A DNA stretch of 64,000 nucleotides from Patescibacteria group bacterium (GTDB taxonomy: Bacteria > Patescibacteriota > Patescibacteriia > UBA10025 > JBIOWE01), in contig JBIOWE010000006.1 in assembly GCA_044868145.1 (NCBI GenBank), positions 78,558 through 142,557 on the forward strand, read 5' to 3'. A program made the translations under genes and the position numbers. A model generated the notes under the pieces. It was not told where the DNA came from. It saw only the letters and a list, made by a program, of their open reading frames with translations, and did no database searches. Positions 1 to 59,911 of this stretch are shown here, in pieces; positions within the stretch are counted from its first letter, which is position 1, and each line of letters opens with the position of its first letter.

Positions 1-441
1 ATCATAAACTTTTTGGTGCTGTTATTCATATTGTATAAACTTGCGTACAAGCCGATCCTGAAGATTCTGCAGGAACGCAAGAACACTATTGAGCAAGGGC
101 TCCATAACGCAAAAAAAGCCGAAGATCGGTTGCAAGAGGTTGACGCACTGGCAAAAGCGAAGTTAGTTGACGCCAGTAAGGAAGCGCAACGCTTGCTAGA
201 TAATACGCAGAGCGACGCGGAATTGCTTCGACAAGAAAAGTTGACTGAGACGCAGCGCGAAGCCCACATTATCTTGGAAAAAACGAAAAAGGAGATTGAG
301 CGCGAACAAAAACAAATGTTTGAAGAAGCAAAATCCTCGGTCGCCAGTCTCGTCGTCAGCGCGACCGAGAAAGTGCTCGTAAAAAAGATCGACAGCCAGG
401 AAGATCAGCGGATTATTGAAGATGTCGTGAAACATCTCTAA
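1..441 (+). CDS. atpF: F0F1 ATP synthase subunit b, 5'-truncated at window edge
   Basis: Open frame from nt 1 with no upstream stop; residues ILKILQERK...KAEDRLQE form the coiled-coil stalk typical of subunit b; immediately precedes delta/alpha/gamma/beta/epsilon. Confidence 0.8.
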   Translation: MINFLVLLFILYKLAYKPILKILQERKNTIEQGLHNAKKAEDRLQEVDALAKAKLVDASKEAQRLLDNTQSDAELLRQEKLTETQREAHIILEKTKKEIEREQKQMFEEAKSSVASLVVSATEKVLVKKIDSQEDQRIIEDVVKHL

Positions 442-449
442 GGAAACAT

Positions 450-848
450 ATGTCGAAGATTCCAAGTAAAAAATATGCAGCCAGCTTGCTCGAAGCGTTG
501 GCTGAAACCCCGGAAGCGAAGCAGGATGCGATTTTTAATCATTTCCTTAGCCTCATGGTGCAACAGAATGACATGGCAAAAGCACCGGCGATTGTTCGCG
601 ACCTTGAACAAATGTTGAAAGTAAAAGCCGGCGTTCTGGACGTCGAGCTCACAACCAGCCATCCGCTTGATGACCAGACGCGTCAGCATATCGTTGAAAA
701 AGTCCAGGAACGGCTTGGCAAAAAGATAGAGGTGTTCGAGCGCCGCGATCCAAGCCTGTTGGGCGGCGTCGTGATAAAATACGGCGACACTGTCTTGGAC
801 GGTAGTATCAAGCGAAAACTTGCAGCCTTACGCGAACAATTGATTTGA
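450..848 (+). CDS. atpH: F0F1 ATP synthase subunit delta (OSCP), short form
   Basis: 132 aa; position between b and alpha; C-terminal LDGSIK.KL..L motif typical of delta; RBS AAGGAAACAT upstream. Confidence 0.85.
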
Positions 849-852
849 ACAT

Positions 853-2358
853 ATGGCAAATAAAGATTACATTATCGAACGACTCAAGGAAAAAATCATC
901 CACTTCAAAGCAGAGATGAAAAAAGAGAACGTGGGCACGGTCGTGGAAGTCGGGGACGGCATCGCGCGCGTTTCCGGTTTGTCCGAATGCCTTGCCTCGG
1001 AAATGCTGGCGTTTCCGCACAACACGTTTGGCGTCGCGTTAAACCTGGAAGAAGATTTTGTCGGCGCGGTCATTTTGGGCGATTATACGCGTATCAAGGA
1101 GGGTGATGAGGTGAAAACAACCGGACGCATTCTCGAAGTGCCGGTTGGCGACAGTCTTATCGGACGCGTGGTTGACCCGCTCGGCAGGCCGCTCGACGGC
1201 AAAGGGGAGATCAAAACAAAAACGTTTTATCCAGTTGAAAAGATTGCGCCACGCGTTATTACGCGTGAATCCGTGCGTACGCCCGTGCAAACGGGGATTA
1301 AGGCAATCGACTCGATGATTCCAATCGGTCGCGGCCAGCGTGAGCTCATTATCGGCGACCGTCAGACCGGTAAAACTTCACTTGCTATCGACGCGATCAT
1401 CAACCAAAAAGGCCAGAACATGATTTGTGTGTACGTCGCCATCGGCCAGAAGGAGTCCAAGATTGCGAAAATCGTTGCCAAGCTTGAGGAACGAGGGGCG
1501 ATGGACCACACGATTGTCGTTCTCGCCGGCGCGTCCGAGCCCGCCTCACTTTCGTTTATTGCGCCGTACGCCGGATGTGCAATGGCGGAATATTTCATGG
1601 ACCAGGGCAAAGATTGCCTTGTTATCTACGACGACCTCACGCGCCATGCCTGGGCGTATCGGCAAATTTCATTATTGCTCCGTCGGCCGCCGGGCCGCGA
1701 GGCGTATCCAGGCGACATTTTCTACTTGCATTCTCGTTTGCTTGAACGCGCCGCGAAGTTGAATAAAGAACACGGCGCAGGCTCTTTAACCGCGCTCCCT
1801 ATTATCGAAACGCAAGCAGGCGACATTTCCGCGTACATTCCGACCAACGTCATTTCGATTACGGACGGACAAATTTACCTTGAATCAGACCTTTTTTACC
1901 AGGGCATTCGGCCGGCCTTGAACGTCGGGCTTTCCGTTTCCCGCGTCGGCTCCACAGCTCAAATACCGGCGATGAAACGCGTGGCCGGCAAACTGCGGCT
2001 TGAACTGGCGCAATTCCGCGAGCTCGCGGCGTTCGCGCAATTCGGTTCGGAACTCGATGACGCCACGCGTAAGCAAATTGAACGCGGACGTAGGCTACAG
2101 GAAATTCTCAAGCAAAAGCAGTTTGTTCCCATGGCCGTGGAACACCAAGTAGCCATTCTCTATGCCGCGATCAATGGCTATGTTGACGACGTGCCTGTTG
2201 AACGTGTGCAAGAATTTGAACAGAAGTTCCACGATTACTTAAAGCGCAACAAGAAAGCACTTGAGCTCATTAGCAAAGAGCGCGACATCACGCCGAATGT
2301 CGAAACGGCGCTCAAAGCGGCAATCAAGGAATTTAAAACAGTTACGCCTCTCACTTAA
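853..2358 (+). CDS. atpA: F0F1 ATP synthase subunit alpha
   Basis: 501 aa; Walker [14 protein letters not shown]; strongly conserved alpha-subunit sequence throughout. Confidence 0.97.
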
Positions 2359-2361
2359 CAT

Positions 2362-3264
2362 ATGCCAGTTGCTACACGCGATATTAAACGACGTATTCGT
2401 TCCATCGGTAATACCCGCAAGATTACCAAGGCGATGGAACTGGTTGCCGCCGCGAAAATGCGGAAAGCCGTGCAAGCGGTTTTGGCAACGCGGGCCTATG
2501 CCCATGCGGCATGGGAAATAGTAACAGACCTCGCGCATCGTTCGCAGGAAGAATTGCATCCGCTCTTGCAGAAATCAAAAAAGACCCGCTCGCTCGCCAT
2601 TATTTTGATTACTTCGAACAGGGGTTTATGTGGCGGGTTTAATCGAGAAATTATTGAAGAAACCGGCACGTATATTCATGAACAAAAGAATGGTGGCGTT
2701 CAAACAGTTGATGTGATTTTATTGGGCAAGAAAGGAACGGATATAGTGTCGCGCCATGGCCAGCGGGTGACTGCTGCGTATCCGAAAGAGGACGTGGCTC
2801 GGGGAGTCTCCGATATCGCATCTATCAGCCGTTTCGTTGTCAACGATTTCTTATCAAAAAAGTATGACCGCGTGGTGGTGAGCTACACTGATTACGTTTC
2901 CGCGGTTTCGCAAGAGCCGTATATCAGGACGATTCTGCCCATCGAACGAGAAAGCCAAAAGCTCGGCGTGATCGGTAAAACAGCCAACGTTCCAACTCAT
3001 GCTTTTGGCGAGTATCTGTTTGAGCCGTCAGCCGATATTGTGCTGGATAATATGCTCTTCCGATTGATTGAGCTACAATTGTATCAAGCGCTGCTTGAGT
3101 CGAACGCCTCGGAGCATTCGGCCCGCATGTTCGCAATGCGTAACGCGTCTGATGCTGCCTCGGACATGATTGATGATCTGACGCTTACCTATAACCAAGC
3201 GCGTCAGTGGTCAATTACGGCGGAACTTGCGGATATCATTGGCGGACGCGCAGCGGTTGAGTAA
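2362..3264 (+). CDS. atpG: F0F1 ATP synthase subunit gamma
   Basis: 300 aa; N-terminal IKRRIRSIGNTRKITKAMELVAAAKMRKA and C-terminal ITAELADIIGG are gamma hallmarks. Confidence 0.95.
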   Translation: MPVATRDIKRRIRSIGNTRKITKAMELVAAAKMRKAVQAVLATRAYAHAAWEIVTDLAHRSQEELHPLLQKSKKTRSLAIILITSNRGLCGGFNREIIEETGTYIHEQKNGGVQTVDVILLGKKGTDIVSRHGQRVTAAYPKEDVARGVSDIASISRFVVNDFLSKKYDRVVVSYTDYVSAVSQEPYIRTILPIERESQKLGVIGKTANVPTHAFGEYLFEPSADIVLDNMLFRLIELQLYQALLESNASEHSARMFAMRNASDAASDMIDDLTLTYNQARQWSITAELADIIGGRAAVE

Positions 3265-3276
3265 AGAAAAAATTAA

Positions 3277-4707
<1,431 letters not shown>

Positions 4708-4748
4708 TCCCAGCGCACCTCTCCGCGGGTGCGATTGGACCATGCGAT

Positions 4749-5189
4749 ATGGCAAAAACATTCCATTTCGAAATAACGACACCCGAGAAAACCGTTCTCA
4801 AAGATGAGATTGACGAACTCATTGTGCCAACGCCAAACGGCGAGATTGGCATTTTGCCCAATCATGTGCCGCTTGTCTCGCTCGTTTCGCCCGGTGAAAT
4901 TCGTATTAAAAAGGGAAGTGACGTGACCCATATGGCGACGTCCGGCGGTTTCGTGCAAGTGCAACGCGACAAAGTAATTCTCCTTGCGGACACCGCTGAA
5001 CACGCGGAAGAAATTGACGTGGCAGCCGCGGAAGAGGCGCATAAACGAGCTGAAGCGATGATGAAGGAGAAGAAGTTAGATGCGCGAGAATTCGCTGCAC
5101 TGTCTGCTCGAATCGAAAAAGAGTTGGCACGCCTCAAAGTGGCGCGCAGGCGCCGAGAGCCAAAAATAAGACCAGGATCGCTTAAATAA
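4749..5189 (+). CDS. atpC: F0F1 ATP synthase subunit epsilon
   Basis: 146 aa; N-terminal beta-sandwich sequence (F.ITTPEK...E.D.LIVPT..GEIGILPNH.PL) plus helical C-terminus. Confidence 0.9.
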   Translation: MAKTFHFEITTPEKTVLKDEIDELIVPTPNGEIGILPNHVPLVSLVSPGEIRIKKGSDVTHMATSGGFVQVQRDKVILLADTAEHAEEIDVAAAEEAHKRAEAMMKEKKLDAREFAALSARIEKELARLKVARRRREPKIRPGSLK

Positions 5190-5219
5190 CAGCGCATCAC
5201 CCCTGAGTATATCGAGGGG

Positions 5220-5247
5220 TTGACAAATTCTTATTTTAGAATATACT
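5220..5247 (+). promoter_or_regulatory. sigma70-like promoter (TTGACA-16-TATACT) upstream of the 5300 gene
   Basis: -35 TTGACA at 5220-5225, 16-nt spacer, -10 TATACT at 5242-5247; AAAGGAGG RBS follows at about 5288. Confidence 0.5.
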
Positions 5248-5299
5248 AATGAGTCAGTAAAAAATAAAACCGGCACTCTAACAAACAAAAGGAGGATTG

Positions 5300-5860
5300 A
5301 TGGGAGATGCAACCGGAGGTGAAGCATATCGTCCGACCGAACTAGAAAGAATCCAAGACTGGATTGACGGAGGCCTTCTCCGTAATGTCGACCAAGGAAT
5401 TTTGAACGGCCGTTGTAAAGAAGGGTCCATTGTCCTTCTTTGCGGCGATGGTGACAAATCATTCGATAAGATTTTCAAACATCTTATCGAGAAGCTCGGT
5501 TTGTCCAAGCGGGTCCATCTGGAGGCAGTGAACGGCGGCGCATTTCGACTTATCGAAGACGCGCCAATACCCAACAATCAACGGATCCACCAGCAGCTTC
5601 TCGCAGAGCTGCATCAGAGTCGAGAGCTGAAGCAGATCTCCAACCTTCTTTTGTACGCGCACTATCCGTGTGGAATGGCAATAGCCTCTGGCATCGACTT
5701 GTCGCAAACAATTGAGTACACGCTCCAAGCCTCCCAATTATTGGTACGGACAGGATGGGATGCGAAGAGTATTGTGCCGTTATTTCATGTAGATCACGGA
5801 ACAAAACTCCGGACCTACTATATCGAAAAGACGATGCGTCATCTTCTGAATGCCGCATAA
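5300..5860 (+). CDS. beta-carbonic-anhydrase-like protein (divergent paralog; CxDxR replaced by CGDGD, HxxCG retained)
   Basis: ATG at 5300 after RBS AAAGGAGG; aligns along its length with the downstream 142-aa paralog; motifs LLCGDGD and HYPCG about 76 aa apart, matching beta-CA Zn-ligand spacing. Confidence 0.4.
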   Translation: MGDATGGEAYRPTELERIQDWIDGGLLRNVDQGILNGRCKEGSIVLLCGDGDKSFDKIFKHLIEKLGLSKRVHLEAVNGGAFRLIEDAPIPNNQRIHQQLLAELHQSRELKQISNLLLYAHYPCGMAIASGIDLSQTIEYTLQASQLLVRTGWDAKSIVPLFHVDHGTKLRTYYIEKTMRHLLNAA

Positions 5861-5865
5861 CGTTT

Positions 5866-5905
5866 CCGGGCAGTTGCATATTTGTGACTGCCCGTTTATT
5901 ATTAC
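5866..5905 (+). terminator. rho-independent terminator-like hairpin between the two beta-CA-like genes
   Basis: 8-bp stem CGGGCAGT/ACTGCCCG followed by TTTATTATT. Confidence 0.5.
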
Positions 5906-5917
5906 TAATGGACATCT

Positions 5918-6346
5918 ATGCATACGTGTAAAGCACTTGTTATCCATTGTATGGACTTTCGGTTCATCGAGAGTCTCCGGCAGTGGCTGAACAGCGTTGG
6001 GCTGAAGAATGATTACGATCTCGTATCCGTTGCCGGCGCTGCGAAAAATATCGTAAGCCCGAGTCAATCGTCTGACCGCGATTTTCTTTTGAGACAAATT
6101 GAGACAAGTAAGCGATTGCACCACATTTCAGAGGTATACTTGATCAATCATCTCGATTGCGGAGCGTACGGAGGCGCAAAAGCGTTTTCGGACCAAAACG
6201 CAGAGCGTAACCAACACGTGAGCGACCTGAAAGCCGCGAAAGAGATTCTCCAAAAACAATTTTCTGACCTTGCGGTAAAACTCGTGGTCGCGAAGCTGGC
6301 AAAAGACACAGGGGAATTTGAAGTGCAGTTCGAGATGATTGTATAA
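5918..6346 (+). CDS. beta-class carbonic-anhydrase-like protein (short, 142 aa)
   Basis: CMDFR (CxDxR) at residues 11-15 and HLDCG (HxxCG) at 78-82 with canonical spacing for beta-CA zinc ligands. Confidence 0.5.
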   Translation: MHTCKALVIHCMDFRFIESLRQWLNSVGLKNDYDLVSVAGAAKNIVSPSQSSDRDFLLRQIETSKRLHHISEVYLINHLDCGAYGGAKAFSDQNAERNQHVSDLKAAKEILQKQFSDLAVKLVVAKLAKDTGEFEVQFEMIV

Positions 6347-6488
6347 TTTCACCATATTTTTGCACAACGTAAACCCAGCGCAGGCCGCTGTGCCTGCGAT
6401 GGGTTATGGCTTTCGTCTCCGCACCCACAGCGGGGTGCTCTGGTTTTTGCAGCCTTGTTTCAAAAATATATTATTGCTATAATGTAAG

Positions 6489-6510
6489 CATGAAACATTT
6501 GTTTCATGCT
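6489..6510. repeat. perfect 10-bp-arm palindrome GCATGAAACA..TGTTTCATGC
   Basis: Read directly from sequence; sits in a 290-bp intergenic region. Confidence 0.6.
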
Positions 6511-6533
6511 GTGGAAAACTTTGAATAACTGAA

Positions 6534-6557
6534 GGGGCGAATTTTCGCCTCTTTTTT
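6534..6557 (+). terminator. rho-independent terminator (GGCGA-loop-TCGCC plus T7)
   Basis: GC stem followed by CTCTTTTTTG. Confidence 0.5.
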
Positions 6558-6640
6558 GTTTATTGCTCGCAGAGATTGGAGGTGAGACCTACGTAATGCG
6601 CGCACATAAAGCTCATTAACATTTCATAAAGGAGGGATCA

Positions 6641-7072
6641 ATGCTGCAGGTGGCTGAAAAGAACGTTATTGACTTTAAGAAACTCGTGAGTGAGCCCTTG
6701 GGTAATGGATACCCACGTTTCTCCGTCAACGGTGTAGCCTATGCGTCTGAAGGAGAGAAAATGATTGCGCTTATGCTGCACGGGAATAACATTAAGTTTC
6801 GTCCAAACCCGTCGTTTAAGTTATCAGACGGTCACACATATATTCCAGACTTTGTTTTAAAATTTCCTTTCACGTGGCTGGGCCAAGACGATGATCGTTA
6901 TAAGACGTTCCGCGTTCTCGAAGCAAAAAACGGAATCATCCACCCTACAGATCTCATAAAAGCAAAACTTCTTGAGGAGGAATGGGGGTTGCCTGTCAAG
7001 TTGCTGCTGTATCGTGAGATTAAAAACCATCACAAACAAGGAGCTTTGCCTCTTGAGCTCATTTTCGACTGA
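6641..7072 (+). CDS. VRR-NUC / PD-(D/E)xK-fold nuclease domain protein
   Basis: 143 aa; motif ...YIPDFVL...(21 aa)...VLEAKNG = D ... ExK catalytic signature; RBS AAAGGAGGGATCA upstream. Confidence 0.5.
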   Translation: MLQVAEKNVIDFKKLVSEPLGNGYPRFSVNGVAYASEGEKMIALMLHGNNIKFRPNPSFKLSDGHTYIPDFVLKFPFTWLGQDDDRYKTFRVLEAKNGIIHPTDLIKAKLLEEEWGLPVKLLLYREIKNHHKQGALPLELIFD

Positions 7073-7138
7073 AAAATGCGACTCGCCCAAGATATTGGGC
7101 GAGTTTTGCTTTTTACTTTCGTGTGTTAAAATACATCC

Positions 7139-10100
7139 ATGAATATTTCCGAGAACCTGAATGACGCGCAAAAAAAGGCGGTCACGTTTGGCGAAGGACC
7201 GCTTTTGATTGTGGCCGGCGCCGGAACTGGAAAAACGACCGTGATCACCCAGCGTATCGCATGGCTCATCCTCGAAAAAAAACTGAAAACAGATTCCATC
7301 CTCGCGTTGACGTTCACGGATAAAGCCGCGGGCGAGATGGAGGAGCGCATTGACGTCGCGTTGCCGTACGGCTACGTTGATCTTTGGGTGTCGACGTTTC
7401 ACGCGTTTTGCGAGCGTATCTTAAAAGACAATGCATTGGAGATTGGCTTGCCGCCGGATTTCAAGCTCTTGAATCAAGTTGACCAAGCGCTACTCGTTCG
7501 GGAACAGTTTGACCGGTTCAACCTTGATTATTATCGGCCGCTCGGGAATCCGACAAAATTTATTCAAGCGCTCGTTAAACATTTCTCACGCGCAAAAGAT
7601 GAAAATATTTTACCGCAAGATTACCTTGAGTATGCAAAGAACGTGAAACTCGATCGCGACCAAGCGGAGTTTTTGAAGAAGAAGGAGGGCGAGCGCATCT
7701 CTGAAAAAGAACGCATACAAGAGGTCGCGGACGCGTATCACGTCTATCAGCAGCTTTTGTTGGAAAAAAGCAGCCTCGATTTCGGCGACCTGATTCTGTA
7801 TGCGATTAAATTGCTGAAGGAACGGCCAAACGTGCTGAAGCGATACCAGGAGCAATTCGCGTATATTCTCGTGGACGAGTTTCAAGACACCAATCATGCG
7901 CAATACGAGCTCATCAAGCTCCTGGCCGCGCCGAAGAATAACGTAACTGTGGTCGGTGATGACGACCAGTCAATCTACAAATTCCGCGGAGCCGCCATAT
8001 CGAACATTTTGGAGTTTAAAAAGGACTTTCCGAATTCGCAGGAGATCGTACTCACAGAAAATTATCGTTCGAAACAAAACATCCTTGATTTGGCGTACAA
8101 GTTCATTCAACTGAATAACCCAAACCGCCTTGAGTATCAATTGTCGCACGGGCACATTGATCCGAAGGGCCGCCCGCTGCAAACAAAAATTTCCAAACAG
8201 CTCCATTCCACAACGGGCGATGCGGGGTTGATCGAGCATATGCATTTTCGAGGCCACACGGAAGAGGCGTCGGGCGTAGTGAAGAAAATTCTCGATTTGA
8301 AGCGCGACGACCCCAAGCTCACGTGGTCCGATTTTTCGATTCTTGTTCGTGCGAACAGCTACGCGAGCGACTTTCTGGCGGTCTTGCGACGATACGACGT
8401 GCCGTATCACTTTCTCGCATCCTCAGGGCTCTACAGCCAGCCTGAGGTTATGGACATTATCGCTTATTTGAAGATGCTTGATAATTATCACGAGAGCGCA
8501 AGCTTATGGCGCGTATTGAATTTTCCTCATTGGCAATTACCGCATAAAGATCTTATTGAGTTTTCCCGATATGCGTCAAGGCGAAATGTTTCGCTGTATG
8601 ACGCGATGAAGATTGGAAGATCGTTGCAATCGGTTTCGCAGGAGACCTTGAAAAAAATTGACGACGTGCTTGGCATGATTGAAAAACATACGGCGTTCGC
8701 GAAGCAGAAAACCGTGGGGCAAGTCGGTTTGCAGTTCATGCAGGATTCTGGATATCTCCAACATTTAACTGAAAATCAGAACCAAGAGAATCTTGACAAA
8801 ATCATGCACCTCAACCAATTTTTTCGAAAAATCGAGCAGTTCGAGTCGAACCATGACGATAAGTCGGTGCACTCGTTCTTGAAGGAGTTCGAGATGATGC
8901 AGGAAGCCGGTGAGGAGGGCGCTTTATTGCCACCGTTTGAAGAGGGCCCAGACGCGGTGAAACTGATGACGCTGCATAGCGCAAAGGGGCTCGAATTTTC
9001 CTACGTGTTCCTCGTCAACTTAGTTGATAAACGATTCCCATCCGTGGAGCGCAAAGAGCCGATTGAGCTTCCGGAAGCGCTGATTAAGGAGATTATCCCC
9101 GAAGGCGATGTGCACCTGCAGGAAGAGCGGCGGTTATTTTACGTCGGCATGACACGAGCAAAACAGGCGCTTTTCTTCACATCCGCTGATGATTACGGAG
9201 GAACGCGCAAGAAGCGGCCGTCGCGTTTTCTTGTTGAATTAGGATTCCAGCGCAAGGAGGGAACAGAAGAGGTTGACTTCAGCGAGCGACTAAGGCAGCC
9301 AGAACAAATGAGCCGTCAGGAAGTGAGCTATGTGGAATTTTTGCGAAAATCAATTCCGGAAAAAGCGAGCTTCACGCAAATACGCGCATTTGAAACGTGC
9401 CCGAAGCAATATAAGTATGCGCATATTTTTAAGATTCCTGTGGAAGGACGGTTCACCTTCAGTTTTGGAAAGTCCGTTCACAATACGTTATTTCGGTTTT
9501 TTAAGCTCGTGAAAGAACGGGCCACGAATAATCAAGCCAGCCTTTTTTCGACTTCCAAAGCGCCAAAATCAACGCAGCCGATTGTAACCCTCGAGGAGCT
9601 GCTCGTCATCTATGAGAATGCGTGGATTCCCGATTGGTACGAATCAAGCAAGCATCAGGAGGAATATCAGCGAAAAGGCAAACAGCAGTTGCAGCAGTGG
9701 TACCTTGCGATGCAAGGAAAGTTTCCGGTGCCTGTTCATCTTGAAAAATCGTTCAACGTGAAAATAGGCGAGCGTCTTTTGAAAGGGGTGATTGATCGTA
9801 TTGATCCAGTGGGGGAGAACGGGGAGGTCGAGATTATTGACTACAAAACGGGCGCGGTTCCAAAAGGAGGCAAGCTTGAAGAAGACGACAAGCGACAACT
9901 GTTCATCTATGACTTGGCCGTCCGCGACGTACTTGGCTTGAAGCCCAAGAACCTCACCTACCACTACCTTGAAGGCAACCAGCTCTTATCATTTGCAAGC
10001 GATCCTGCTACACTAGAGGAGACGCGAGAATACCTAACGCAGACCGTTGAAGCCATTCACGGGAGCACGTTCGCCGCTACTCCTGGGTATTGGTGCAAGA

Positions 10101-10144
10101 CATGCGATTTCTATCAAATTTGTGAAGACCGATGGAAAGGATAA
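7139..10144 (+). CDS. UvrD/PcrA-family SF1 DNA helicase fused to C-terminal AddB/Cas4-like PD-(D/E)xK Fe-S nuclease domain
   Basis: Helicase motifs GAGTGKTTV (I), VDEFQDTN (II), ENYRS, YVGMTRAK (VI); C-terminus has CPKQYKY ... IDRID ... EIIDYKTG ... CKTCDFYQIC (Cys cluster plus nuclease motifs). Confidence 0.85.
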   Translation: MNISENLNDAQKKAVTFGEGPLLIVAGAGTGKTTVITQRIAWLILEKKLKTDSILALTFTDKAAGEMEERIDVALPYGYVDLWVSTFHAFCERILKDNALEIGLPPDFKLLNQVDQALLVREQFDRFNLDYYRPLGNPTKFIQALVKHFSRAKDENILPQDYLEYAKNVKLDRDQAEFLKKKEGERISEKERIQEVADAYHVYQQLLLEKSSLDFGDLILYAIKLLKERPNVLKRYQEQFAYILVDEFQDTNHAQYELIKLLAAPKNNVTVVGDDDQSIYKFRGAAISNILEFKKDFPNSQEIVLTENYRSKQNILDLAYKFIQLNNPNRLEYQLSHGHIDPKGRPLQTKISKQLHSTTGDAGLIEHMHFRGHTEEASGVVKKILDLKRDDPKLTWSDFSILVRANSYASDFLAVLRRYDVPYHFLASSGLYSQPEVMDIIAYLKMLDNYHESASLWRVLNFPHWQLPHKDLIEFSRYASRRNVSLYDAMKIGRSLQSVSQETLKKIDDVLGMIEKHTAFAKQKTVGQVGLQFMQDSGYLQHLTENQNQENLDKIMHLNQFFRKIEQFESNHDDKSVHSFLKEFEMMQEAGEEGALLPPFEEGPDAVKLMTLHSAKGLEFSYVFLVNLVDKRFPSVERKEPIELPEALIKEIIPEGDVHLQEERRLFYVGMTRAKQALFFTSADDYGGTRKKRPSRFLVELGFQRKEGTEEVDFSERLRQPEQMSRQEVSYVEFLRKSIPEKASFTQIRAFETCPKQYKYAHIFKIPVEGRFTFSFGKSVHNTLFRFFKLVKERATNNQASLFSTSKAPKSTQPIVTLEELLVIYENAWIPDWYESSKHQEEYQRKGKQQLQQWYLAMQGKFPVPVHLEKSFNVKIGERLLKGVIDRIDPVGENGEVEIIDYKTGAVPKGGKLEEDDKRQLFIYDLAVRDVLGLKPKNLTYHYLEGNQLLSFASDPATLEETREYLTQTVEAIHGSTFAATPGYWCKTCDFYQICEDRWKG

Positions 10145-59766: not shown

Positions 59767-59837
59767 GCGGGTGTAGTATAGCGGCAGTACGCTTGCTTCC
59801 CAAGCAAGAAGAGGCGGTTCGACTCCGCTCATCCGCT
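59767..59837 (+). tRNA. tRNA-Gly (anticodon CCC)
   Basis: Acceptor GCGGGTG/CATCCGC (one G-U), anticodon stem CTTGC/GCAAG, loop ttCCCaa, T-arm GGCGG-TTCGACT-CCGCT, discriminator U. Confidence 0.8.
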
Positions 59838-59862
59838 CGGGCGAAGGCAGGCGGGGAACCGG

Positions 59863-59911
59863 CGCAACAACCTTGGGAAGGTTGTGTACTACCACTATAC
59901 GAATCCCGCAA
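59863..59911 (-). pseudogene. inverted partial tRNA-Gly(CCC)-like copy (5' half intact, 3' half degenerate)
   Basis: Reverse complement GCGGGATTCGTATAGTGGTAGTACACAACCTTCCCAAGGTTG has acceptor, D-arm and CCC anticodon arm but no valid T-arm/acceptor 3' strand. Confidence 0.4.

Follow-up and report, generated by a model that had tools for sequence, protein, structure and literature searches.

Type II beta-class carbonic anhydrases (beta-CAs), such as HICA of H. influenzae and Can of E. coli, have a closed and inactive T-state. In this state the zinc has Cys, Asp, His and Cys as its ligands, without an open position for water. The Asp binds zinc in the closed state, and an Arg draws the Asp away in the open state. 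The carboxysomal enzyme CsoSCA is built differently, with a catalytic module fused to a degenerate beta-CA module that has no zinc ligands. CsoSCA is clade E of the beta-CAs (PMC6690855). The F-clade of beta-CAs was defined by Pander et al. in 2019 (PMC6690855). Its members that resemble the enzyme of C. autoethanogenum (Caut-bCA, CLAU_3021) have 124-142 amino acids (aa), and the spacing between their CxDxR and HxxC motifs is about 64 residues, compared with about 55 in other clades (PMC6690855). F-clade proteins come "relatively often" from uncultivated bacteria and archaea (PMC6690855). Caut-bCA itself (124 aa) is an active dimer with a kcat of 2.1e5 per s and a kcat/KM of 3.1e7, and it complements an E. 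coli can mutant (PMC6690855). Here we describe a tandem pair of beta-CA-like genes, named ORF1 and ORF2 after their open reading frames (ORFs), in a stretch of DNA from a Patescibacteria group bacterium. The stretch is 64,000 nucleotides (nt) long (assembly GCA_044868145.1, contig JBIOWE010000006.1, positions 78,558-142,557 of the forward strand) and is called the window below.

We propose, with moderate confidence, that ORF2 is a working minimal carbonic anhydrase whose conserved position ties it to the ATP synthase, and that its paralog ORF1 binds metal, has taken on a new role and probably lacks CO2 hydration activity. The pair was first pointed out in an original prediction made by reading the sequence. 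Both reading frames are on the + strand where that prediction had placed them, and all the motifs that it quoted are present. The pair and the element between the two genes are as follows.

5300-5860, + strand: ORF1, ATG start, 186 aa, member of an unnamed beta-CA-like family
5867-5904, + strand: intergenic GC-rich hairpin with an interrupted T-tract, resembling an intrinsic terminator or attenuator (stem scan and folding energy)
5918-6346, + strand: ORF2, 142 aa, predicted minimal beta-class carbonic anhydrase (Pfam PF20393, Pro_CA_2)

ORF2 and the Pro_CA_2 family

ORF2 matched the Pfam family PF20393 (Pro_CA_2, "putative carbonic anhydrase") over residues 1-120 with 58.9 bits and E=7.5e-16. 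The gathering cut-off of this family is 30 bits. The original prediction had named PF00484 (Pro_CA) as the profile to search. Neither ORF1 nor ORF2 matched PF00484 at E<=10, and it was through PF20393 that the expected match appeared for ORF2.

The beta-CA signature claimed for ORF2 was found in full. It consists of CMDFR (C11-M-D-F-R15) and HLDCG (H78-L-D-C81-G), with 67 residues from C11 to H78 and 62 residues between R15 and H78. From these motifs, C11, H78 and C81 are the predicted zinc ligands and D13-R15 is the predicted dyad.

More than 220 homologs of ORF2 were found. Nearly all of them are 128-155 aa long, and PF20393 was present in every one. They come mainly from Patescibacteria metagenome-assembled genomes (MAGs), and many have already been called carbonic anhydrase by NCBI or JGI. 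A tblastn search of phage genomes with ORF2 gave no match. In an alignment of 35 Pro_CA_2 sequences (A2), H78, D80, C81, G82, D34, G40 and H68 were invariant, and C11, D13 and R15 were conserved in at least 90%. Among the ORF2 orthologs from the loci that we fetched, CxDxR was present in 84 of 85 and HxDCG in 85 of 85.

When the Pro_CA_2 profile was compared with the sequences of the PDB, the best match was Rv1284 (1ylk, E=1.3e-4), followed by 6jqd, 3las and 5ztp. Carbon disulfide (CS2) and carbonyl sulfide (COS) hydrolases were matched more weakly. The AlphaFold2 (AF2) model of ORF2 had a predicted local distance difference test (pLDDT) score of 95.9 and a predicted template modelling (pTM) score of 0.90. 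Foldseek placed Cab (1g5c) first among PDB structures with E=4.2e-5 and a modest TMq of 0.55, and matches 1-14 were all beta-CAs. In the model, C11 directly follows strand 6-10, and strand 72-78 ends with H78 and C81, as in beta-CAs. Cab has about 20 extra residues ahead of the equivalent point. The N-terminal arm is thus absent from ORF2, as had been said of it.

Judged by its sequence, ORF2 is a beta-CA of an already named family and of a kind already known. The original prediction had called it unusually small for a beta-CA. We found its size to be normal for Pro_CA_2, and it also falls within the published F-clade range.

The ORF1 family and its altered site

ORF1 had no Pfam or NCBIfam match. 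Its two motifs are IVLLCGDGDKSF at residues 44-55 and LLYAHYPCGMA at residues 117-127. A word-indexed homolog search returned two matches, ORF1 itself and one protein with 53% identity, and a profile query returned eight. ORF1 might be taken for an orphan from these numbers. We rejected this, because the word-indexed search is insensitive. When HMMER was run exhaustively over 1.84 billion representatives of clusters at 50% identity, at least 424 of the clusters matched at E<=1e-3 and 175 of them at E<=1e-10, with members typically 175-200 aa long. Ten of the cluster representatives were looked up, and these gave nothing beyond "hypothetical protein" and no taxonomy.

We aligned 81 members of the ORF1 family (alignment A3), whose mean identity to ORF1 is about 28%. 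Against the hidden Markov model (HMM) of its own family ORF1 scored 163 bits, ORF1 being among the sequences used to build the HMM. The family consensus reads CxDGDQ ... RIH..NGGA ... LK ... HxPCG.A ... HVD ... KRTYF. In A3, C48, D50, K111, H121 and C124 are invariant (81/81). G79 is conserved in 80 members, G80 and P123 in 79 each, H73 and H163 in 78 each, G42 in 77, Y173 in 76, A127 in 75, and D52 and G125 in 73 each. ORF1 itself carries every one of these residues.

At the level of sequence, the homology between ORF1 and ORF2 is detectable by profiles only. BLASTP gave the two proteins E=0.012, and its register was a different, incorrect one. With a profile of two ORF1 sequences, hhalign gave a probability of 43.8% against Pro_CA_2. 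With the 81-sequence profile, the probability rose to 96.85% with E=2e-10 over 119 columns. In this alignment C48, D50 and D52 correspond to C11, D13 and R15; G79 corresponds to G40; and H121, C124 and G125 correspond to H78, C81 and G82. This is the register in which the original prediction had drawn the two proteins as paralogs. The ORF1-family HMM built from A3 also matched Pro_CA_2 ORFs directly, including ORF2 of the window (E=1.8e-8). Weak PF00484 matches were found in three of the 81 family members, the best with E=0.0041. Among PDB sequences, the ORF1 profile A1 gave no match, and the A3 profile gave a single marginal match to a beta-CA (1ddz, E=0.0086).

The AF2 model of ORF1, built with 81 sequences, had a pLDDT of 91.3 and a pTM of 0.87. 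C48 directly follows strand 43-47, H121 and C124 end strand 116-122, and the topology is as in ORF2. The model has an additional N-terminal helix-strand-helix at residues 12-38. The best PDB fold match was 1ekj (E=8.7e-4, TMq 0.43-0.45), followed by 2a5v, 3las and 6jqd. TMq across these matches was a modest 0.38-0.45, and the top 20 matches were beta-CAs. In a viral structure library the top match of the ORF1 model was also a carbonic anhydrase. Structure prediction had been proposed along with the first reading of the pair; both models are confident, and beta-CAs are the top fold matches of both. Taking together the profile-profile match, the shared topology and the beta-CA fold matches, we conclude from sequence and model that ORF1 is a true remote beta-CA-fold paralog of ORF2.

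The site of ORF1 is altered. ORF1 has C48-G-D50-G-D52 in place of CxDxR, and its HxxC is present as H121-Y-P-C124. The absence of the conserved Arg of CxDxR was noticed in the original prediction for this one protein. With Asp at this position in 73 of 81 members, the loss of the dyad Arg is family-wide in the alignment, not a one-off. Beyond the ligands, the Asp and Arg of CxDxR are the sole absolutely conserved residues of beta-CAs (PMC12018205), and a dyad mutation impairs the function of the beta-CA-like protein DabA2 (PMC13144422). Three positions that are conserved within each family hold different residues in the two: from the ORF2 family to the ORF1 family, R15 is replaced by D52, D34 by H73 and H68 by K111 in the hhalign register. 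The ORF1 type also has additions, namely a conserved HVD that ends strand 158-165 and KRTY(F/Y) in the last hairpin.

C48, D50, H121 and C124 are the putative metal ligands of ORF1. Because these four residues and several new ones are invariant in 81 diverse members, the alignment indicates that ORF1 is no simple dead copy. The family is sizeable, has no Pfam or NCBIfam model and represents a variant of the beta-CA fold that has not been described. Nature has in effect run an experiment on the Asp-Arg dyad here, and the family members are candidate pseudoenzymes or neofunctionalised enzymes.

Gene order, recurrence and expression of the pair

The pair follows the last part of an F1Fo ATP synthase operon, which occupies window positions 1-5189 on the + strand according to the ORF translations. 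The original prediction had recognised the operon, and atpA, atpG, atpD and atpC were all confirmed. The features around the pair are as follows.

before atpA, + strand: b and delta subunits of ATP synthase (ORF translations)
853-2358, + strand: atpA (translation; matches ATP synthase genes in related loci)
2362-3264, + strand: atpG (translation; matches ATP synthase genes in related loci)
3325-4707, + strand: atpD (translation; matches ATP synthase genes in related loci)
4749-5189, + strand: atpC, F1 epsilon subunit, final gene of the operon (PF02823, 8.7e-26; PF00401, 1.2e-5)
5220-5247, + strand: sigma-70-like promoter candidate TTGACA-16-TATACT, 5' of ORF1 (11 of 12 consensus positions, pattern scan)
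5290-5295, + strand: Shine-Dalgarno sequence AGGAGG of ORF1 (sequence reading)
6641-7072: 143-aa ORF without a Pfam match
7139-10144: UvrD/PDDEXK helicase-nuclease (Pfam search), with pheS downstream of it

Genome loci around Pro_CA_2 genes were collected at the species level; there were 80, and essentially all come from MAGs of Patescibacteria type. Their ORFs were searched with HMMs of both families and of the proteins that neighbour the pair in the window. In 39 of the 80 loci, atpC lies upstream of the Pro_CA_2 gene on the same strand. The Pro_CA_2 start is 0-153 nt past atpC in 15 loci, and in a further 10 the two are separated by an ORF1-type gene and nothing else. A UvrD/PDDEXK helicase is commonly found downstream, as in the window, and the order of atp genes, carbonic anhydrase genes, UvrD/PDDEXK helicase and pheS is syntenic across many Patescibacteria. 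Placement 3' of the ATP synthase operon, which the original prediction took to be unusual, is typical for the lineage.

The tandem pairing is recurrent and not obligatory. Conservation of the pair in related genomes had been suggested as a check, and an adjacent same-strand paralog was found in 39 of the 80 loci. It is of ORF1 type in 22 of these and a divergent Pro_CA_2-like protein in 17; the other 41 loci have no tandem partner. The 17 Pro_CA_2-like partners mostly keep CxDxR and HxxC and have lost the DCGAYGG signature. The partner gene diverges much faster than the catalytic copy, and degenerate partners were seen in which H121 is changed to D (locus L002) or D50 to N (locus L010). In the closest relatives of ORF1 (53% and 49% identity; loci L001 and L089/L090), the order is atpC, Pro_CA_2, ORF1-like, which is swapped compared with the window.

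The context of ORF1-family genes was also read from four encoding contigs. Stand-alone ORF1-family genes occur in loci L085-L088 and L091. Some have Peptidase_S11/ScpB/ScpA as neighbours, in a genome of Uhrbacteria and in a contig related to it, and one lies beside genes for pyruvate:ferredoxin oxidoreductase and of hydrogenase type. The contigs examined placed ORF1-family genes in no recognisable pathway. In the literature that we searched, we found no report of an atp-linked carbonic anhydrase module in Patescibacteria, and nothing relevant on PF20393/Pro_CA_2 or on carbonic anhydrase in Patescibacteria.

Individual loci showed further variation. In the closest related genome (L001), a gene for a 119-aa PF05635 "23S rRNA intervening sequence protein" lies between atpA and atpG (3842-4201). 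A gene for a 1006-aa Peptidase_S8 protein (1926-4946) lies between atpC and the carbonic anhydrase pair in L002. In L004 this place is taken by proteins without a Pfam match (3593-5863), and the upstream partner there (257 aa, CRDPR ... HGPKC) is extremely divergent, with 18 bits against the ORF1-family HMM. L010 has three consecutive beta-CA-like genes at 7168-8950, namely an ORF1-type gene, a Pro_CA_2 gene and a Pro_CA_2-like gene with CSDDR ... HSDCEAYGG. L024 has two tandem Pro_CA_2 genes at 7947-8969, with 174 and 160 bits. The Patescibacteria-type atp / Pro_CA_2 / UvrD synteny was also seen in L021, L027, L029, L030, L032, L040, L048, L050, L053, L057 and others. The MAGs of these loci are labelled "uncultured Gammaproteobacteria", "Candidatus Saccharibacteria" or "Desulfobulbaceae", which looks like mis-binning or placeholder taxonomy.

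The spacer between atpC and ORF1 is 110 nt, and that between ORF1 and ORF2 is 57 nt. The hairpin at 5867-5894 has a 12-base-pair stem with 7 GC pairs and is followed by TTTATTATTA, in which the T-tract is interrupted. The 60-nt spacer 5858-5917 has a folding energy of -23.6 kcal/mol (z=-5.49 compared with shuffles). The original prediction had described a strong hairpin between the genes and had suggested that they may be expressed independently. The strong hairpin is there, but independent expression was not supported. A + strand promoter scan gave no passing site between 5247 and 6318, with the limit that the scan used the sigma-70 consensus and Patescibacteria promoters may differ. In the ribosome-site region of ORF2 there is only a weak GGA 5 nt upstream of the start. 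A hairpin-embedded promoter, TTGCAT-17-TATTAT at 5874-5902, was noticed by eye; it agrees with the consensus at 8 of 12 positions, fails the scan criteria and was not adopted.

The simplest reading of the sequence would be one transcription unit that begins at the ORF1 promoter or in the atp operon and is attenuated at the hairpin. Such attenuation would give more ORF1 than ORF2 transcript. Because no scan-passing promoter lies between the hairpin and ORF2, partial read-through at the hairpin seems at least as likely as independent expression of ORF2. Rfam and tRNA scans of 5000-7300 gave no match, and the intergenic hairpins in that interval are no known RNAs.

The 143-aa ORF at 6641-7072 is outside the conserved module, as homologs were found in only two of the 80 related loci (L009 and L061). 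The 294-nt region between ORF2 and this ORF (6347-6640) contains several hairpins. Sites at 6421-6438 and 6531-6554 resemble terminators, one at 6446-6474 resembles a promoter, and there is a palindrome at about 6488-6512 (gcatgaaacatttgtttcatgc). Elsewhere in the window, ARAGORN called two tRNA-Gly(CCC) genes that abut tail to tail, at 59767-59838 on the + strand and 59839-59910 on the - strand. Their arms are 71% complementary across 56 nt. Only the + strand copy reached the Rfam gathering score, and the copy on the - strand may have arisen by inverted duplication and degenerated.

Proposed roles and comparison with known carbonic anhydrases

In the mechanism that we propose for ORF2, zinc held by C11, H78 and C81 would activate water, and the D13-R15 dyad would keep the fourth coordination position open. 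ORF2 would then interconvert CO2 and HCO3- plus H+, and would most likely do so as a homodimer. Because ORF2 is a conserved 3' neighbour of the F1Fo ATP synthase operon, often at co-transcription distance, we infer that it serves proton and bicarbonate homeostasis in connection with the ATPase.

ORF1 would be an ancient and fast-diverging paralog that still binds metal through C48, D50, H121 and C124. With D52 in place of the dyad Arg, D50 could not be pulled off the metal. The site would therefore probably be locked in the four-coordinate "closed" state seen in type II beta-CAs, and there would be little or no CO2 hydration. The invariant residues peculiar to the family (H73, K111, H163 and Y173) suggest that ORF1 has retained a role, and a different one, for example as a regulatory or sensor protein or as an altered enzyme, and is not in decay.

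Several points weigh against this interpretation. The link to the ATP synthase is drawn entirely from gene order, which is weaker evidence in genomes so small and syntenic. The grouping of the ORF1 ligands at one site is read from the topology of the model. Replacement of the dyad Asp in Cab (D34A) caused only a modest loss of kcat (PMC12018205), so activity may survive a change in the dyad. That D50 and D52 are so strictly kept would fit a catalytically active ORF1 with a different second shell equally well. Most F-clade members have QxP after CxDxR (PMC6690855), which is nowhere in ORF2 or in the A2 consensus.

A bolder form of our proposal can be offered only tentatively. The ORF1 family would be an undescribed neofunctionalised branch of the beta-CA fold, with a permanent Cys2-His-Asp metal and the new polar residues D52, H73, K111, H163 and Y173, acting together with the ATP-synthase-linked minimal carbonic anhydrase. 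If this is true, ORF1 could be, for example, a CO2/bicarbonate or pH sensor that tunes the carbonic anhydrase or the ATPase, or an enzyme with a new substrate. The conserved module of atp and carbonic anhydrase genes would then reveal unrecognised energy and pH physiology of ultra-small bacteria.

Among the alternatives, the one that survives best is an obligate heterodimer, although we consider it unlikely. ORF1 and ORF2 would pair across the usual beta-CA dimer interface as a regulatory or structural and a catalytic subunit, like the domains of CsoSCA. The recurrence of an adjacent same-strand paralog in 39 of 80 loci, the much faster evolution of the partner and the loss of ligands in the L002 and L010 partners are consistent with this. 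Opposed to it are the strong hairpin between the two genes, the swapped gene order in the closest relatives, the 41 partnerless Pro_CA_2 loci and the stand-alone ORF1-family genes. In addition, the core ORF1 family keeps its four metal ligands without exception, unlike the ligand-less domain of CsoSCA. That beta-CAs act as dimers, including the minimal Caut-bCA (PMC6690855), speaks for the heterodimer.

An active ORF1 is less probable still, and we regard it as doubtful. ORF1 would be a carbonic anhydrase whose second shell has been rebuilt, or else a hydrolase of a different small molecule on a beta-CA scaffold, like the COS and CS2 hydrolases. Invariance of the ligands together with D52, H163, D165, K111, H73 and Y173 in at least 81 diverse members is the pattern of active-site selection. 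The weak PDB matches of the Pro_CA_2 profile to CS2 and COS hydrolases and the weak PF00484 matches in three family members point the same way. However, COS and CS2 hydrolases retain the Arg of CxDxR and so offer no precedent for its loss. Judging from their secondary-structure position, H73 and K111 appear to be on the edge of the sheet where the strands start, at a distance from the metal site. ORF1-family genes also lacked pathway context where we looked.

That the two genes have unrelated functions, as a frozen old tandem duplication in a syntenic reduced genome with neither gene tied to the ATP synthase, is very improbable: the regional synteny, the unrelated genes often found between atpC and Pro_CA_2 (such as Peptidase_S8 in L002) and the promoter-like site and terminator that bracket ORF1 would fit it, but the operon-like spacing on the same strand in 15 loci and the persistence of the pair through flips of its internal order do not.

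Our preferred reading remains a minimal carbonic anhydrase beside a paralog whose site is probably closed. The role of ATP synthase in Patescibacteria is debated, and a carbonic anhydrase linked to the F1Fo enzyme suggests a testable tie between CO2/bicarbonate chemistry, proton handling and the ATPase. The pair is relevant to carbonic anhydrase enzymology and to Patescibacteria physiology, and it is not a categorically new system.

Among described carbonic anhydrases, ORF2 resembles those of the F-clade. Its 142 aa lie within the range of that clade, and its motif spacing is 62 compared with about 64. It also has no arm, has low similarity to classical beta-CAs and is of a type common in uncultivated lineages. 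Caut-bCA lies in a prophage-like cluster, whereas ORF2 lies beside atp genes. Likened by published description (length and spacing), ORF2 probably works like the F-clade enzymes and belongs with them. Within Pfam, ORF2 is a member of PF20393; ORF1 has no match to it at E<=10 and is related to it at the profile-profile level only.

Classical beta-CAs (PF00484; Cab 1g5c, Rv1284 1ylk and the pea enzyme 1ekj) have the fold common to both models. Their Cys/His/Cys ligands are at equivalent strand ends, and there is sequence similarity around HxxCG. The dyad Arg of these enzymes is kept by ORF2 and replaced by Asp in ORF1, and ORF2 is shorter than Cab by the roughly 20 N-terminal residues described above.

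That a catalytic beta-CA module can work next to a diverged one has a precedent in CsoSCA. In contrast to the fused modules of CsoSCA, ORF1 is a separate gene, is separated from ORF2 by a hairpin and keeps all four ligand residues.

For ORF1, the closest parallel to its proposed site is the closed inactive state found in type II beta-CAs, and structures of such enzymes (3e3i, 9ebz and 2a5v) are among its fold matches. Type II beta-CAs keep the Arg and can switch to the open and active form, whereas in ORF1, which has no such Arg, the closure would be permanent.

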